NCBI GenBank assembly: GCA_016190825.1
Contig: JACPPV010000032.1
Coordinates: 4,364-68,363 of the forward strand
From: Chloroflexota bacterium
GTDB lineage: Bacteria > Chloroflexota > Dehalococcoidia > Dehalococcoidales > UBA2162
Length of the DNA stretch: 64,000 nt
Reading direction: 5' to 3'
How positions within the stretch are numbered: the first letter of the stretch is position 1; each line of letters opens with the position of its first letter. The notes below the pieces were generated by a model, which saw only the letters and a list, made by a program, of their open reading frames with translations, ran no database searches and had not been told where the DNA came from. Shown here one piece after another: positions 2,146-63,847 of the stretch. A program made the position numbers and the translations under genes.

Positions 2146-2192
2146 TGGTAGCCCCGCATTGGAAGCATTCCGGACTGGTCTTTGAGAAGAAG
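2146..2192 (+). repeat. Direct repeat copy 1 (47 nt), att-like
   Basis: TGGTAGCCCCGCATTGGAAGCATTCCGGACTGGTCTTTGAGAAGAAG; differs from 3078-3123 by 1 indel and 2 substitutions. Confidence 0.9.
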
Positions 2193-2219: not shown

Positions 2220-2912
2220 CTAAGTGAGAGAAGTCTTGCTCCAATCGGAATCGACATGCAGCTTGAACGTCTCAGACTTAGAGGCGCCGTTTTCCGGAAA
2301 TACCGTCAGTTTTATCTTGTAATCCCCTTCGTAGAATGCATCTTCGCCTCGTAGAGCAGGACCGAGGGGCATCGCGAAAACTTCGTTAGTTCCCGCCCAA
2401 GTAGTCAAAGGTCCCCATTTATTGTCCACTACTCCAGAACGGGCTGTGCTCGCCACGCTTGTATCGTCAATCACCGTGGCTAGTATAGCAGTACCTCCCC
2501 TCGGGGGTATCGTGTGCCTGTCCTCGACCCTCGGGGCAATCCAAATTAGAGCTTTCGGTTCAGGAGACGGAGCTGGGCAGCTTTCCCCATTCTTCTCTGG
2601 TCTTTTTAACACTCTCAGTTCTAAAGTGCAGTTTCTTGCTGGCGCAAAGCCCGTATTCTTGACAGGTAACCTTAGAAAATGCCATGTGGCCCCTCCCCTG
2701 TCAATCATTTTTTTAGAGTCTTTCCAAATGCCTTTCTTATCGAATGACACGAGCGAAACGTTTACGAAATGGTTGTAAAAGGCAATTGCGGACACTGGCC
2801 ATGCGCCTAAGAAGGCAGCAACATATATTGGCTCGGTGAAACGGTATAGAACCAAGATGACAACGATGGGTAAAACTACCCCGGTTCCAATAAACAGCCA
2901 AAATCTCTTCAC
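2220..2912 (-). CDS. Hypothetical membrane protein (two N-terminal TM helices)
   Basis: 230 aa ORF, hydrophobic N-terminus, GAGG SD, more AT-rich than its neighbours, lies between the direct repeats. Confidence 0.75.
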   Translation of the reverse strand: MKRFWLFIGTGVVLPIVVILVLYRFTEPIYVAAFLGAWPVSAIAFYNHFVNVSLVSFDKKGIWKDSKKMIDRGGATWHFLRLPVKNTGFAPARNCTLELRVLKRPEKNGESCPAPSPEPKALIWIAPRVEDRHTIPPRGGTAILATVIDDTSVASTARSGVVDNKWGPLTTWAGTNEVFAMPLGPALRGEDAFYEGDYKIKLTVFPENGASKSETFKLHVDSDWSKTSLT

Positions 2913-3077: not shown

Positions 3078-3123
3078 TGGTAGCCCGCATTGGAAGCATT
3101 CCGAACTGGTGTTTGAGAAGAAG
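3078..3123 (+). repeat. Direct repeat copy 2 (46 nt), att-like
   Basis: TGGTAGCCCGCATTGGAAGCATTCCGAACTGGTGTTTGAGAAGAAG. Confidence 0.9.
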
Positions 3124-16829: not shown

Positions 16830-16861
16830 GCTTGGATACGATAGTAACAGTCGAACTGCGC

Positions 16862-16922
16862 GCCGTTCGTGGTGAGCCTGTCGAACCATCGGCGCGCCCT
16901 TCGACAAGCTCAGGGCGAACGG
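16862..16922. repeat. REP-like palindrome pair
   Basis: GCCGTTCGTGGTGAGCCTGTCGAACC...CCCTTCGACAAGCTCAGGGCGAACGG. Confidence 0.8.
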
Positions 16923-16972
16923 GTCATTATGGCACTGCTTTATACAAGCCAGCAACTGGAAAGGAGGGCAAT

Positions 16973-17374
16973 ATGGTCCTAGACAAATACGCACTGAAAC
17001 GATTCGATGTTGAGCGGGAGGACGCCATTGACACGCAGATGCTTGAGGCGATCCCCTTCGATTACCCGGAATCAGCCACCGAGGTGGTCTACGAGACGGA
17101 CGAGTTCACCGCCGTCTGTCCGTGGACCGGTCTGCCGGATTTCGCCCGCCTGACGATAAAATATGTACCGGGCAACTCCCTGGTGGAGCTCAAATCCCTG
17201 AAATACTATCTCACTTCCTACCGTAACGTAGGCATCCTCCAGGAGCACGCCGTCAACCGCATCCTGAACGACCTGGTGGCGCTGCTCAAGCCCGTTTCGA
17301 TGACGGTGGAGGCCGAGTACCGGGAGCGGGGGGGGATAAAGACGCGGGCGGTGGCGGGGTTCAACGAAGGCTGA
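16973..17374 (+). CDS. queF: preQ0 reductase QueF (single T-fold type)
   Basis: [14 protein letters not shown] and [10 protein letters not shown] motifs; start ATG 16973 after AAGGAGG. Confidence 0.93.
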
Positions 17375-17390
17375 GGATAGCAACAACCGA

Positions 17391-17419
17391 TGTCATTCCC
17401 GCGAAAGCGGGAATCCAGG
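17391..17419. repeat. REP-like palindrome
   Basis: TGTCATTCCCGCGAAAGCGGGAATCCAG; relatives at 19263-19310, 59263-59311, 62055-62100. Confidence 0.75.
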
Positions 17420-17550
17420 GGAGGCGAGGGCTGGATTCTCCGGCTTGACCGGAGAAAGACGCTACTAAACAACCTCATGAATAGGAATTTCAGAATCGAA
17501 AAGCCCCCCGAGTTTTCCCGTGAAAGCGGGCGAAGGAGTGTCTCGGCAGG

Positions 17551-18492
17551 CTAGTTTCTTAGCGGGTACACCTCGGCTCTCCCGTCCTTGATATCAGGGG
17601 GAAACTCTCCCACCTGCCAACCATCTCCCGTAGTCTCCAGATAAAGGTATTTTTTGCCCTCATATAAATAGTGCGTACCGTACGCAGTTGATAACGAAAC
17701 CCCAACAGCCATGTGACTGTCATTCCTTAAAAGCAATAGAGCAACATCATATCCGAGCCGATCGAGTAGAGCCGCAACGAGAATCGATGTATCTTCACAG
17801 TCTCCGCCTCTATCAAAAAGAGTCTGTATGGGGTAGCGTGGATACTCATCGTAACCCGTCGTAACGTCGTCGGAAGTATAAGGCAGGCTTTGAACGAAAG
17901 CTATCACGAAATCGAGTTTCTGGAGTTCGCTAAAACCCTGTTGCAGGGCGGCGTTGTTTATATGTTCGACCATCTTGTCAATATAAACGTCGTCTGTTGT
18001 ATCTTTCGCCAGTTCGACGTAAGTAGAGCCTAATGAGGGTCTTTCCGTCTGTAAATATTCAAAATATAACGCTAACGATATTGGCAAATCCCAGTTCCAG
18101 TCCCATCCTTGATAAGCCCAGCCATAATGCTGGGTTACCGTAACCCCGAGGATTTTGTCCAACTTTCCTTGCGAGAGTGATAAGTCTGACTGTAAGCCAG
18201 CTATCCGATTCTCAAAGCTGATTAGCTGTCTTTCACTCCTTTCTAAATCTGCCTTCAGAATGGAATTCTTTTGTCCCAAAGTATCTCTCTCCGTTCGCAA
18301 GAACGCGGTTTGATTTTTCTGGACAGTATTCTCTTGCTCCAGTTCGGAGACTTCGTTGGTGAGAGTGGAGACCTGAATTTCAAGGTTTTCCATTACTGGC
18401 TGATATTTCTTGATTGCCAGCAGGTAACCAGTCCCAGCCCCTGCGAACAAACAAACGACAAAGATGACGATAAGGATTGACTTTTTACCCAT
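17551..18492 (-). CDS. Membrane-anchored coiled-coil transglutaminase-like protein
   Basis: N-terminal TM helix, coiled coil, FVQSLPY, GDCED(Cys)..HMAVG..YLETT. Confidence 0.82.
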   Translation of the reverse strand: MGKKSILIVIFVVCLFAGAGTGYLLAIKKYQPVMENLEIQVSTLTNEVSELEQENTVQKNQTAFLRTERDTLGQKNSILKADLERSERQLISFENRIAGLQSDLSLSQGKLDKILGVTVTQHYGWAYQGWDWNWDLPISLALYFEYLQTERPSLGSTYVELAKDTTDDVYIDKMVEHINNAALQQGFSELQKLDFVIAFVQSLPYTSDDVTTGYDEYPRYPIQTLFDRGGDCEDTSILVAALLDRLGYDVALLLLRNDSHMAVGVSLSTAYGTHYLYEGKKYLYLETTGDGWQVGEFPPDIKDGRAEVYPLRN

Positions 18493-18574
18493 GAGGCACC
18501 TCCCCGCTGACTAATAGCTTCGAGGAATCAACTGTCCAGAAAGTTTGCACTACTCTCCTTAATGGTTCTCTTTC

Positions 18575-18619
18575 TCTCCCCACCCCCACCCTCATCTCCG
18601 CCTTGAACGTGCCGCACGG
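18575..18619 (-). repeat. Degenerate duplicate of the radA 3' end (copy 3)
   Basis: Shares CTCCCCACCCCCACCCT with the radA end; translates PCGTFKAEMRVGVGRE. Confidence 0.7.
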
Positions 18620-18620
18620 T

Positions 18621-18875
18621 CTAAGCCTGGTACGCATCACCTCTTGACCTCACCCGGTAGATGGTGACCACCTTTGCTTCATCGTCAATCTGGTAAAGGA
18701 TGCGGTAGTCACCCATGCGAATCCGGTAGCCCTCTCTGGCGGTCAGTTTTTTGGCGCCGGGCGGACGGGAGTTCTCAGCCAGACCGGCGATAACCCTGTT
18801 GACTCTCTCCCGGATTTGCGTCGGAAGTCTCCCAACTTGCCGGTGGGAGCTGCGGCTAACCTCCAGCCGGTACAC
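18621..18875 (-). CDS. RelE/ParE family toxin
   Basis: GTG start; RPPGAKKL..YRIRMGDYRILYQIDD. Confidence 0.9.
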   Translation of the reverse strand: MYRLEVSRSSHRQVGRLPTQIRERVNRVIAGLAENSRPPGAKKLTAREGYRIRMGDYRILYQIDDEAKVVTIYRVRSRGDAYQA

Positions 18876-19143
18876 GGCTTTTCCGATGTTTCGCCTTGGC
18901 GAGGTGCTCCTCAAAGGGCATCGTTGGCTCTCTGTCAAGCTCAGCCTGAAGCAGATCGGCGGCATCGGACAGGTCTTCCAGGCGTTCTATCATATCGTTA
19001 TACTGGTCAATGCCGATTAGGACGGCCTTGACCCGGCTGCCGGAGACTATCAGATAAGGTTCTCCGCCTGCCGAGACCTCATCCACAAGCTGCGTCAGTT
19101 TTGGCCGGGCCTCCGCCATACCGATTGATTTGATCTTAGTCAT
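18856..19143 (-). CDS. Phd/YefM family antitoxin
   Basis: IGMAEARPKLTQLVDEV..GEPYLI..KAVLI; AAGGAG SD. Confidence 0.88.
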   Translation of the reverse strand: MTKIKSIGMAEARPKLTQLVDEVSAGGEPYLIVSGSRVKAVLIGIDQYNDMIERLEDLSDAADLLQAELDREPTMPFEEHLAKAKHRKSRVPAGG

Positions 19144-19167
19144 AGCGCTCTCCTTAATGGATACATT

Positions 19168-19185
19168 AACATTAATATTAATGTT
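19168..19185. promoter_or_regulatory. Perfect 18-bp palindrome, putative TA operator
   Basis: AACATTAATATTAATGTT just upstream of the antitoxin. Confidence 0.65.
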
Positions 19186-19332
19186 TGGCAAGTTGTTTAT
19201 GGGCAGCTACCCGTGGAACTGCCATGCCGGCCACCGAGCCAGAATCCAAGTGGGGTGGGAGTAGATTCCCGCTGGAGTTTACCCCTGCGAAGTCAGGGGC
19301 GGGAATGACAATAGAGGTGCGGAAATAGCACC

Positions 19333-19413
19333 TCACGCAATCTGTTCTTTTCCGCTGTCTCTCCCCACCCCCACCCGTATCGCCTCCCGCAGGGTGCTGA
19401 CAGGGTACGACCT
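19333..19413 (-). repeat. Duplicate of the radA 3' end (copy 2) with its own stop codon
   Basis: Translates RSYPVSTLREAIRVGVGRDSGKEQIA*; RadA ends ..PAATLREAIRVGVGRGKEASASE*. Confidence 0.88.
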
Positions 19414-19414
19414 T

Positions 19415-19615
19415 TCACACGGTCTCAAACTGGAGGCGCTTCAGTTCCTCGGGCGGAATACGCTTCTTAATACCAAGAATCTCAATGCCCACCGCCTGCC
19501 CATTGGCGTTATAGTCCACGATAATGCCGGGCTGAACTTCCTCGGATTCGACTATCTGGCTTTCGTCGAGGCGGAAATACAGGGCATCGCTGGACTCATC
19601 TATCTTGATTCTCAT
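19415..19615 (-). CDS. DUF2283 protein (putative antitoxin)
   Basis: DALYFRL..SEEVQPGIIVDYNANGQAVGIEIL; ATGA overlap with upstream gene. Confidence 0.88.
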   Translation of the reverse strand: MRIKIDESSDALYFRLDESQIVESEEVQPGIIVDYNANGQAVGIEILGIKKRIPPEELKRLQFETV

Positions 19616-19890
19616 ATGTTCCTCCATTCCCGGCGGTCGAAAAACAATGTGACAATAATCATCGGTGACTCGCCTTCTTGCCTGGTCACCACTCTCAGCA
19701 CGCGCCCGCCATGCTCCCGTATCGGCTTTAGATAGTGGACAGTGCCGTCTTCGTTTCGCTCTGTCCGCATCGGCTCCGCTATCGTGCGCTCGACCCACTC
19801 CAGGGCTATGTTACGCTCTTTGAGCATGTCCTCTGCGTGAGCGGTGAAGTTTAGCTCTATTATCAGCGTCTCCTGAGTTAATTTTACCAT
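19612..19890 (-). CDS. DUF4258 protein (putative toxin)
   Basis: FTAHAEDMLKERNI..WVERTIAEP..RVLRVV..IVTLFFDR. Confidence 0.85.
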   Translation of the reverse strand: MVKLTQETLIIELNFTAHAEDMLKERNIALEWVERTIAEPMRTERNEDGTVHYLKPIREHGGRVLRVVTRQEGESPMIIVTLFFDRREWRNI

Positions 19891-19920
19891 AAAGCGGGTG
19901 GCTACACTGAATTAAGTCCG

Positions 19921-21315
19921 TCATTCACTTGCGCTTGCTTCCTTCCCTCTCCCCACCCCCACCCTTATCGCCTCCCGGAGTGTGGCGGCGGGGATAAGCT
20001 CGATTTCGGGGGGAGCGTCAATCCGGGCATTGGCCTTGGGAATGATGCAGCGTTTGAAGCCAAGGCGGGCGGCTTCGTTCACCCGGCGGTCAAGCTGGGG
20101 GACGGCTCTTAGCTCGCCACCCAGCCCCACCTCCCCCACCACCGCCATGTGCGGGTCAACAACGGCATCGCGGAAGCTGGAGGCAATTGCCATGGCAATG
20201 CCCAAATCCGCCGCCGGCTCTTCGATTCTCAGCCCGCCGGTGACGTTGACCAGGACATCCTGGTTACCCAGCTTCAGGCCGGCCCTTCTGGATAGCACGG
20301 CGGAGATCAGGAGCAGTCGATTGAAGTCCACCCCGCTGGCGGTGCGCCGGGGTTGCCCGAAGCTCGTTGGATTGGTTAGTGCCTGTATCTCCACCAGCAG
20401 AGGGCGGGTGCCCTCGAAGGTGGGCACTACCACCGAGCCAATGGTCTCCTCACCTCTTTGGGACATGAACGCCTGTGATGGATTTGCCACTTCGACCAGA
20501 CCCTCCGATTTCATCTCGAAGACGCCGATTTCGTTGGTAGAGCCGAAGCGGTTCTTCACACTCCGCAGTAGGCGATAAGGACTGAAAGGCTCCCCCTCCA
20601 GGTAAATTACAACATCGACGATGTGCTCCAGGACGCGAGGCCCGGCAATGGCGCCGTCCTTGGTCACGTGGCCCACCAGGAAGATTGGCACGTTCCGCGT
20701 TTTTGCCCAGTGCATCAGCCTTGAGACGCACTCCCGCACCTGTGTGACGCTGCCGGAAGAGGAATCCACTTGAGGCGCGTACACCGCTTGCACCGAATCA
20801 ACCACAACCAGGCCGGGGGTAAGTGTTTCGACCTGGTCCAGGATGACTTCGAGGTTGGTCTCCGACAGGAGGTAAAGGTTTTCTCCCCTTATCCCCAGCC
20901 GCTCCGCCCGCAGCTTGATCTGGCGCTCTGTCTCTTCCCCCGAGACGTAAACCACTGTACTACCCCCTTGCGCCATCAAAGCGGAAACCTGGAGCAGCAG
21001 AGTTGATTTGCCGATGCCCGGGTCGCCCCCGATGAGCACCACCGAGCCCGGCACCAGCCCCCCTCCCAGCACCCGGTTAAATTCATTGATCGCCAGTGGC
21101 AGCCGGTCTCGGGCTTCGATGGAGACCCCCGACAGTTCTAGTGGCGGGCTCAGGGATGCATCCGGCTGAAATGCCGCTGAAACGACGACCGTTTTTTCGA
21201 CCAGGCTATTCCACTGCTGGCACTCGGGGCAGCGGCCCAACCATTTGAGGCTCTCCTTGCCACATTCCTGGCAGACAAAGATGGCGCGGCTTTCCGGGCG
21301 GTTGCTTCTGACCAT
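19921..21315 (-). CDS. radA: DNA repair protein RadA/Sms
   Basis: Zn finger CQECG..CPEC, GDPGIGKST, KNRFG, Lon-like C-terminus. Confidence 0.97.
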   Translation of the reverse strand: MVRSNRPESRAIFVCQECGKESLKWLGRCPECQQWNSLVEKTVVVSAAFQPDASLSPPLELSGVSIEARDRLPLAINEFNRVLGGGLVPGSVVLIGGDPGIGKSTLLLQVSALMAQGGSTVVYVSGEETERQIKLRAERLGIRGENLYLLSETNLEVILDQVETLTPGLVVVDSVQAVYAPQVDSSSGSVTQVRECVSRLMHWAKTRNVPIFLVGHVTKDGAIAGPRVLEHIVDVVIYLEGEPFSPYRLLRSVKNRFGSTNEIGVFEMKSEGLVEVANPSQAFMSQRGEETIGSVVVPTFEGTRPLLVEIQALTNPTSFGQPRRTASGVDFNRLLLISAVLSRRAGLKLGNQDVLVNVTGGLRIEEPAADLGIAMAIASSFRDAVVDPHMAVVGEVGLGGELRAVPQLDRRVNEAARLGFKRCIIPKANARIDAPPEIELIPAATLREAIRVGVGRGKEASASE

Positions 21316-63476: not shown

Positions 63477-63598
63477 AACTGTTGTTCAGCTACCCTCTCC
63501 GCCGGAGTTTTTGGGGGGTTCAGCCTCTTCGAAACTACGCATTTATGATGGGAAGTAAAGAGATAGTCTGATGCGCACAGCTCTGGTTGAGTATCCTC

Positions 63599-63847
63599 TT
63601 ACACCTTCAACCCGAGGACTTCCTCGAAGGACTCCAGGTTGGGCTGGATGGCGTAGGACCGAACCATATCGGCGACTACTTCCTGGGTTCGGGGGTCAGC
63701 GCCCGGCTTCTGCCGGCTGTAGATGATGCGCGCCCCTACCCCATACCCCCCGATGAAGTCCCAGTAAAGCTTTTCATCAAAGACCTCGCTGGTTATCTCA
63801 CCCGTTGCAAGGTTGACCCAGAGATTCTTGCCCATGTAGCCCGCCAT
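63599..63847 (-). pseudogene. Truncated aldehyde:ferredoxin oxidoreductase N-terminus with an unrelated tail
   Basis: MAGYMGK.L.VNL..G....FIGGYGVGA..PGADP matches an AOR start, then stops at 82 aa. Confidence 0.7.

Follow-up and report, generated by a model that had tools for sequence, protein, structure and literature searches.

The 64,000-nucleotide (nt) stretch analysed here, hereafter the window, lies on a 76.6-kb contig (C27; JACPPV010000032.1, positions 4,364 to 68,363) of a 41-contig metagenome assembly of 1,816,772 bases (GCA_016190825.1, Chloroflexota, class Dehalococcoidia), and carries behind the gene radA an array of two small toxin-antitoxin cassettes, each followed by a displaced copy of the radA 3′ end. 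Both cassettes are insertions, the same design recurs at other gene ends of this genome and of its class, and the displaced gene ends, hereafter relics, resemble ends of the same genes from another lineage. The explanation we prefer, in which our confidence is evenly balanced, is that such cassettes bring a copy of the gene end with them and integrate by a crossover within that end, without a dedicated integrase. A first-pass annotation of this DNA had proposed repeated insertion into the radA 3′ end, building an age-ordered, integron-like array without a local integrase, and its historical inference turned out to be largely right.

Read along the minus strand, the order is pheT, radA, the DUF4258-DUF2283 pair, tail copy 2, the Phd-ParE pair, tail copy 3, a gene for a 313-amino acid (aa) protein, and convergent queF. 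The radA gene (19921..21315, 464 aa) is intact (TIGR00416 equivalog, 604 bits, residues 10–450; Pfam AAA_25, zinc ribbon and ChlI/Lon_C), and its working tail from P442 to the stop is tail copy 1 (19921..19992, PAATLREAIRVGVGRGKEASASE followed by the stop). Cassette 1 (19415..19890) consists of two overlapping minus-strand genes, encoding DUF4258 (19612..19890, 92 aa; Pfam PF14076, E = 1.4e-8) and DUF2283 (19415..19615, 66 aa; PF10049, E = 1.4e-17), and behind it stands copy 2, the displaced radA tail (19333..19404, minus strand, PVSTLREAIRVGVGRDSGKEQIA followed by the stop). Cassette 2 (18621..19143), with a match to TIGR01552, encodes on the same strand a Phd/YefM antitoxin (18856..19143, 95 aa; PF02604, E = 1.2e-12) and a ParE/RelE-type toxin (18621..18875, 84 aa; PF05016, E = 6.1e-10), and is followed by copy 3, the most decayed relic (18574..18610, minus strand, TFKAEMRVGVGR). 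In both pairs the genes are adjacent, intact and above the Pfam cut-offs, as befits type II toxin-antitoxin systems; DUF4258-DUF2283 we take to be such a pair from a prediction in the literature. The tail copies start 588 and 785 nt apart, and the units so delimited, each bounded by a repeat of the radA 3′ end, hold toxin-antitoxin genes only, with neither a mobility gene nor restriction (R) and modification (M) genes. Both relics begin 10 nt past the stop of the preceding cassette. The DUF4258 gene starts 30 nt past the radA stop, a gap that leaves little space for a promoter of its own, and transcription from radA appears to run on into cassette 1; cassette 2 has its own A/T-rich palindromic leader.

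The three tails share a G-rich 18-mer, GGGTGGGGGTGGGGAGAG, which is exact in all of them against an expectation of 0.01 in the window, and none of 100 shuffles reached three occurrences. With up to two mismatches allowed, just the three copies matched in the whole genome; the reversed pattern, used as a control, gave three matches at that setting too, so the weight lies on the exactness and clustering of the matches. When the three tails were compared with the genome by short-word BLAST, they matched only one another below E = 1e-3. Copies 1 and 2 are of equal length, have their stops at the same position and are identical at 35 of 38 nt, including a 31-nt core (19947–19977 in copy 1, coding R447–R456, and 19359–19389 in copy 2), and copies 1 and 3 share an exact 19-nt core (18574–18592 in copy 3) together with 14 of 21 upstream nt. 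The repeat accordingly measures 31–38 nt for copies 1 and 2, and 19 exact nt with a decayed flank for copy 3; distant relatives have radA followed by queF with no relic between. To the eye, the core also gives an impression of G-quadruplex potential.

A chance similarity of G-runs, or a chimera of strains made in assembly, could be suspected from the G-rich core and from the 41-contig metagenome origin of the sequence, but is extremely improbable in view of the three exact 18-mers and of the in-frame similarity, which reaches into codons that are not G-rich. Contigs from four public runs of one study, two of which may be the source sample, span every copy with unique flanks and without a single difference (for instance X2 records 12 and 13), and the depth across the array is even (~45–75 in X1 and X2), indicating that the array is not an assembly chimera. 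The arrangement of radA, cassettes and tail copies given in the first-pass annotation, and its view that the similarity goes beyond a low-complexity run, were both borne out by these results.

For the history of the locus we compared the radA loci of 29 relatives, all from other genera (RadA identity 62–76%). In four of them (L006, L007, L013 and L028, with gaps of 3–55 nt) convergent queF follows radA directly, and 12 have it somewhere downstream. Two have, behind radA, a homologue of the 313-aa protein (~50% identity; L011, where queF comes next, and L019, where queF is not in reach), and elsewhere other genes follow. Neither toxin-antitoxin pair was found behind radA in any of the 29. Since relatives have either radA-queF or radA, the 313-aa homologue and queF, the two pairs are insertions at the radA 3′ end, as had been claimed, and queF (16832..17374, plus strand; Pfam QueF, E = 1.6e-28), which converges on radA, is on this comparison the ancestral neighbour and marks the far edge of the variable region. 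The two pairs also occur in other settings: DUF4258 and DUF2283 lie next to each other in 16 of the 19 loci of the class that have homologues, and homologues of cassette 2 are found in L177–L179 (59–66% identity for the toxin and 74–83% for the antitoxin).

Comparison of the genome with itself, combined with a search through 2,552 long open frames for 3′ tails present more than once, revealed the same design at further gene ends. At mutL (C2:114925-118811; L125:1426-5312) a perfect 40-nt copy of the tail, including the stop, lies 1,665 nt downstream, 1 nt past the stop of the last inserted gene and followed by an RNase H gene; the insert encodes an N6_N4 DNA methylase (PF01555) and a BglII-like endonuclease (PF09195), the latter adjoining the relic. 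Furuta, Abe and Kobayashi (2010; PMC2853133) recognise restriction-modification (R-M) systems inserted with long target duplication by R and M genes, an insert below 20 kb and a repeat above 30 bp, and the mutL locus, which has all of these, can be read as a clean, textbook case. No empty mutL site was found: rnhA, methylase and endonuclease are all absent within 1.5 kb of mutL in 28 of 28 relatives, among which the order mutL-rnhA is not conserved.

Toxin-antitoxin pairs occupy two more gene ends of this genome. In purD (C30:1283-1860) a Phd-ParE pair sits in the first codons, with a 37-nt copy of the gene start, the old ribosome site and TTG left upstream and the present ATG start lying within the 3′ end of ParE, and behind ispG (C10:27100-27960) an antitoxin-ParE pair is followed by a diverged tail relic of 36–55 nt that has kept frame and stop (IGVAQEEDFLAALMREVERI followed by the stop). 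Three of the four ParE homologues of the genome are thereby placed in cassettes with gene-end repeats; the fourth (C8) has no flanking repeat of at least 15 nt. The cargo differs at thrC, whose tail is repeated over 110 nt (97%) 3.6 kb downstream, beside convergent dinB (window 63594-63703 onward; C27:67957-72825; L126), the 3.6-kb insert containing three open reading frames (ORFs) without a family match and a DDE transposase gene of the IS240 type that has a zinc ribbon. An intergenic direct repeat of 47 nt (one indel, two mismatches; window 2146-2192 and 3078-3123), downstream of a gene resembling FMN reductase, encloses a single 230-aa ORF (2220-2912, minus strand) with no Pfam match.

The design extends to other genomes of the class. 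Among 401 genomes ParE gave more than 250 matches, from which the 30 best-scoring loci were taken, one being the window's own and 29 others (the tally includes the unpublished genome G282, on which no result rests). Direct repeats of at least 33 nt on both sides of the ParE pair were present in four of the 29: a 50-nt repeat of the argJ tail with argB next (L187), a 33–36-nt repeat of a tRNA-Pro 3′ end (L190/L212), a 125-nt repeat of the first 41 codons of a gene whose N-terminus is presumably PLD-like (L198), and four copies of the carB 5′ start (L204/L206, genome G075). Of the DUF4258 loci, one of 19 (L169) has a GNAT gene and the pair enclosed by copies of a gene start that match perfectly over 23 nt. 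By a cruder count of repeats of at least 30 nt across the locus centre, ParE scored 5 of 29, the fifth (L201) not flanking the toxin, against 0 of 29 and 0 of 28 for housekeeping loci, 1 of 80 for metagenome loci and 0 of 19 in a further comparison set. At radA, mutL, purD, argJ, tRNA-Pro and carB all seven cassettes point in the direction of the target gene, and no shared motif was seen at the cassette junctions.

The carB array of G075 is the second stacked case. From carA to carB it runs through a start copy with ATG, an IS200-type Y1 transposase-like gene, a second start copy, Phd-ParE, a third start copy, a gene for a 200-aa membrane protein and the working carB start, that is, three cassettes and four copies, whereas in its congener G166 (L208) the transposase-like gene alone stands between the distal copy and the working start, giving one cassette and two copies. 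This was the only array for which a filled and a less filled state could be compared; alignments of the two genomes overlap by 63 nt at the carB start. The cassette common to both is the one farthest from the gene, which fits an array that grows from its gene-proximal side, although the picture would be no different if G166 had lost cassettes through recombination between copies. Repeat lengths in the array are unequal, the outer pair reaching at least 87 nt and the inner copies 56–60 nt.

A relic that is a local duplicate in decay should gather mainly replacements. Codons were compared between working end and relic in the frame of each gene. Silent differences made up four of four at argJ (including stop to stop), eight of nine, four of five and four of six between carB copy A and copies D, C and B, respectively, four of six between radA copies 1 and 2 (from P to R), one of two at thrC and the single one within the purD repeat, compared with one of eight at ispG (of 21 codons), six of 18 at L198 and one of seven between radA copies 1 and 3. 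Most replacements in ispG and L198 are conservative and the frame is kept, in ispG with the stop. On this codon pattern most relics have the appearance of the corresponding gene end of another lineage, and radA copy 3 looks like an exception that has truly decayed. Copy 2 of radA, with its full-length alternative tail and mostly silent differences, fits the first-pass proposal that a new C-terminus had been supplied and the old one displaced; its segment PVSTLREAIRVG matches radA tails of relatives, for example in L006, and the final eight codons of present-day radA (GKEASASE and stop), which lie past the shared core, are unlike those of copy 2.

These codon data bear directly on a true insertion with long target duplication, in which a widely staggered break or template switching would duplicate 30–110 nt of the recipient's own sequence. 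The mutL locus would suit it well, with a repeat identical at 40 of 40 nt, sharp edges and an R-M pair without a mobility gene as in the cases outlined in PMC2853133, and so would the perfect 23-nt repeat of L169 and the long, variable repeats in general. Recipient sequence left to neutral decay would be expected to show replacements and loss of frame, and what is found instead is four of four silent differences at argJ and eight of nine at carB, frame and stop retained in the ispG relic, and in radA copy 2 a tail of equal length with radA-like codons (PVSTL) outside the core and mainly silent differences. We therefore regard target duplication as improbable.

The preferred explanation, crossover with an incoming gene end, would run as follows at radA. 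Two compact type II toxin-antitoxin cassettes (588 and 785 nt) would have entered the last codons of the gene successively, each on DNA with a radA tail of its own as a ‘gene-end mimic’, probably as a circular or otherwise terminus-bearing intermediate. A reciprocal, Campbell-type crossover in the G-rich core (over which all three copies agree exactly at 19 nt, and copies 1 and 2 at 30 of 31 nt) would give radA a new, non-conserved C-terminal tip and move the previous tail downstream, where it would decay untranslated; radA itself would remain intact, since the RadA family model ends at residue 450, which the core spans. Host recombination acting on short homology might perform the crossover, or else an enzyme whose gene lies elsewhere, and the toxin-antitoxin pair would make loss of the cassette costly. 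Because every such event would push the old tail downstream, the array most likely grows at radA with the oldest relic farthest away, and this order, already assumed in the first-pass annotation, fits both the decay gradient at radA and the distal common cassette at carB. A reciprocal crossover in the core further predicts the profile actually seen between copies 1 and 2, namely a diverged stretch upstream (five codons differ, three of them silently), a core alike at 30 of 31 nt and again a diverged stretch downstream (the eight final codons, with an unshifted stop), which simple duplication does not predict. One-sided homology-facilitated illegitimate recombination predicts identity upstream of the crossover; copies 1 and 2 do not bear this out, and we rank it below the reciprocal crossover.

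Whether a dedicated enzyme takes part is a separate matter. The statement in the first-pass annotation that no recombinase is present holds for the entire window contig, on which neither a tyrosine nor a serine recombinase gene was found; PF00589 matches occur on C2, C3, C20, C21 and C29, and the genome encodes four uninterrupted tyrosine recombinase frames (C2, C3, C21 and C29) and a 536-aa serine recombinase (C3). An enzyme of this kind, or one from a neighbouring element since lost, could have acted in trans on the cassettes as minimal cis-mobilisable elements, with the radA-tail core as attachment (att) site, and tandem accretion would follow. The core is indeed exact and sharply bounded, 19 nt being the same in three copies while 7 of 21 upstream nt of copy 3 differ; a gene 3′ end, elsewhere a tRNA 3′ end, is a target typical of integrases, and integrase-less ssrA islands of Dehalococcoides offer a precedent (PMC3146451). 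A motif, [GC]CGGGAG-N7-GGRKGGGG, occurs in the genome only at the radA (19947-19977) and mutL (C2:116606-116628) repeats, but counts as a hint only, having been derived post hoc from these two loci. Set against this are at least nine unrelated targets (radA, mutL, purD, ispG, thrC, argJ, tRNA-Pro, carB and the L198 gene) with repeats of 23–125 nt that include 5′ gene starts, which would call for many specificities. The cassettes have no site of their own in common, the repeat lengths within the carB array are unequal, no integrase was found in or beside the arrays (window contig, L206 and L212), and radA is not reused in the 29 relatives. We consider site-specific recombination in trans unlikely, if less so than target duplication. 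The lack of a junction motif, the many unrelated targets and the range of repeat lengths speak against one dedicated integrase, and host recombination or some non-specific route would be favoured.

Several observations weigh against crossover with an incoming gene end as we prefer it. An exact, sharply bounded core is also a hallmark of att sites, and the recombinases on other contigs could act in trans. Homologous recombination on 19–31 nt is inefficient, and at ispG and L198 the divergence between repeats is too great for it. The counts of silent sites are small and that comparison was chosen post hoc. At carB, the two copies within G166 are alike at 56 of 60 nt, more than when each is set against the G075 copy in the equivalent position (51 and 53), pointing to conversion between copies that has blurred the history. 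The four runs, which are available as contigs only, showed neither a circular form nor an empty radA site nor a variant of the array, and no joints between tail copies occur in these contigs, which drop rare variants and are uninformative either way. A radA locus of the same species or genus was absent from the collections, where the best RadA identity was 76% in genomes and 69% in metagenomes.

To these is added the absence of radA-tail relics in relatives, none being found in the 29 radA loci over the 0.7–1.5 kb read. For metagenomes we took the best 80 of 591 RadA relatives and excluded 14 loci (eight with the tail uncovered, five too short downstream, one off the end); in the 66 examined there were two matches, a 13-nt chance match and L040. 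The idea that radA is a recurrent hot spot marked by relics was therefore not upheld. In L040 (4600-6400; RadA 53% identical) an A/T-rich repeat of ~31 nt or more occurs twice, once at the radA stop and once 1.6 kb further downstream, enclosing one 513-aa ORF; it may be a tail duplication or a mere repeated intergenic element.

The integron analogy of the first-pass annotation, taken as a mechanism, fared no better. Toxin-antitoxin cassettes are common in chromosomal integrons, and the radA units are likewise small, co-oriented and tightly packed, with no room for a promoter before cassette 1. DNA folds of both strands, however, gave no attC-type hairpin common to the three repeats (z from −1.81 to +1.00), nor was there an attC-type core, an IntI gene with attI beside the array or a tyrosine recombinase on the contig, and the repeats are in-frame copies of the RadA coding tail instead of attC sites. 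An integron or integron-like cassette array is accordingly scarcely credible here. What the two have in common is the serial arrangement of compact, co-oriented and mostly promoterless units; what sets the radA array apart is that it lacks attC hairpin, IntI and attI and that its separators are copies of a coding gene end.

Among known systems, insertion of R-M systems accompanied by long target duplication was reportedly described by Nobusato et al. in 2000. SCC elements of staphylococci form tandem units at the 3′ end of orfX/rlmH with short repeats between them, some without ccr, and integrate through Ccr serine recombinases at one fixed site; they resemble the radA array in being tandem units with short repeats at a gene 3′ end and differ in their dependence on Ccr and in the single fixed site. 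‘Minimal mobile elements’ of Neisseria are cassettes swapped by homologous recombination in conserved flanks after DNA uptake, and differ in having no duplication of the flanking gene end. The nearest published array is that of McMurdie et al. (2011; PMC3146451), who cite Pavlovic et al. (2004): tandem ssrA islands of Dehalococcoides with 20-bp ssrA repeats between them, 15 of which have no integration module and are proposed to be cis-mobilisable, and 16 of which have a module with a 540-residue serine integrase. Both kinds of array place tandem units behind a single-copy housekeeping gene with a short repeat of its 3′ end, many of them without an integration module. The islands in that account are kilobases long, rely on a serine integrase and reuse the same site across strains, whereas the radA units measure 0.5–0.8 kb, have no integrase in the array and belong to a design that uses many gene ends, including 5′ starts. 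ARAGORN found no tmRNA gene in the 41 contigs.

According to PMC2853133, most cases of long target duplication come from naturally competent species and the mechanism is called unknown, and the review PMC3874152 treats such insertion for R-M systems only. ComEC and DprA, two DNA-uptake proteins, are encoded in the genome studied here, which as evidence is weak. The cassettes described here resemble these cases in being small selfish ‘addiction’ modules without a mobility gene between target repeats above 30 bp and of variable length; they differ in their toxin-antitoxin cargo, a term that does not occur in the text of PMC2853133, and in that the repeats are gene ends, the relic is like an allele of another lineage and the insertions are stacked. 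The radA, purD, ispG, argJ and carB loci extend long target duplication to toxin-antitoxin systems, to stacked arrays and to relics resembling foreign alleles, and the design is a new form of long-target-duplication insertion and tandem accretion that holds generally for gene ends of this genome and its class. A search by title and abstract, which did not cover subscription journals, returned no published minimal toxin-antitoxin cassettes bounded by gene-end copies, and none by title or abstract describing this design with radA as integration site.

A broader generalisation, which we put forward tentatively and find possible though doubtful, is that there exists a class of minimal recombinase-less cassettes (toxin-antitoxin, R-M or single genes) whose ‘address’ is a copy of the first or last codons of a host gene. 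A circle formed between flanking copies would leave, enter a related genome and cross over in the gene end; the terminus would be swapped, age-ordered arrays would be built, and the cassettes would be read through from the host gene. If this is true, minimal cassettes would be a recombinase-free counterpart of integrons and the missing mechanism behind insertion with long target duplication. How toxin-antitoxin and R-M modules spread outside plasmids, phages and transposons is poorly understood, and the loci described here give concrete material: several targets in one small genome and two stacked arrays, one of which differs between congeners. Relics like alleles of other lineages point to a terminus-bearing intermediate rather than to local duplication, and essential genes (radA, mutL, purD, ispG and carB) evidently tolerate repeated replacement of their terminal codons. 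For annotation, relic gene ends by small cassettes can serve to flag genes recently gained by uncultured bacteria of groundwater.

Beyond the cassettes, the 313-aa coiled-coil protein (17551..18492, minus strand) has a C-terminal region with weak likeness to transglutaminase and LapG. Its earlier label ‘transglutaminase-like’ found weak support, with Transglut_core at E = 0.037 and LapG at E = 0.0013, both under the cut-offs. The G+C content of this gene is 0.43–0.49 compared with 0.58–0.64 in radA and queF, and the gene may itself be an older arrival.

The region also contains dispersed elements and traces of strain variation. A palindromic REP-like element in the leader of cassette 2 (19264..19310, outside the tail repeat) forms an inverted repeat, I17, with 17391-17402, and shows high depth and ‘joints’ to 17418 in all four runs. 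REP-like elements of the GTCATTCCCGC...GCGGGAATGAC and CCGTTCGCCCTGAGC... types occur genome-wide (window 17390-17530 and 19264-19310; C10, C16, C17 and C37), with very high run depth, and are a source of false ‘joints’; those from 17416-17420 to 19263-19264 stem from such a dispersed element and not from the tail copies. Runs X4 and X1 include a minor variant contig with 8–9 differences at window 19803-19919, over the DUF4258 start and the radA stop region, indicating a second strain with the same cassette behind radA. Elsewhere in the genome, C38:1-1030 holds a CRISPR-like array with the 32-nt repeat GTTTCAATCCACGCACCCGCGCAGGGTGCGAC at a spacing of ~67 nt.

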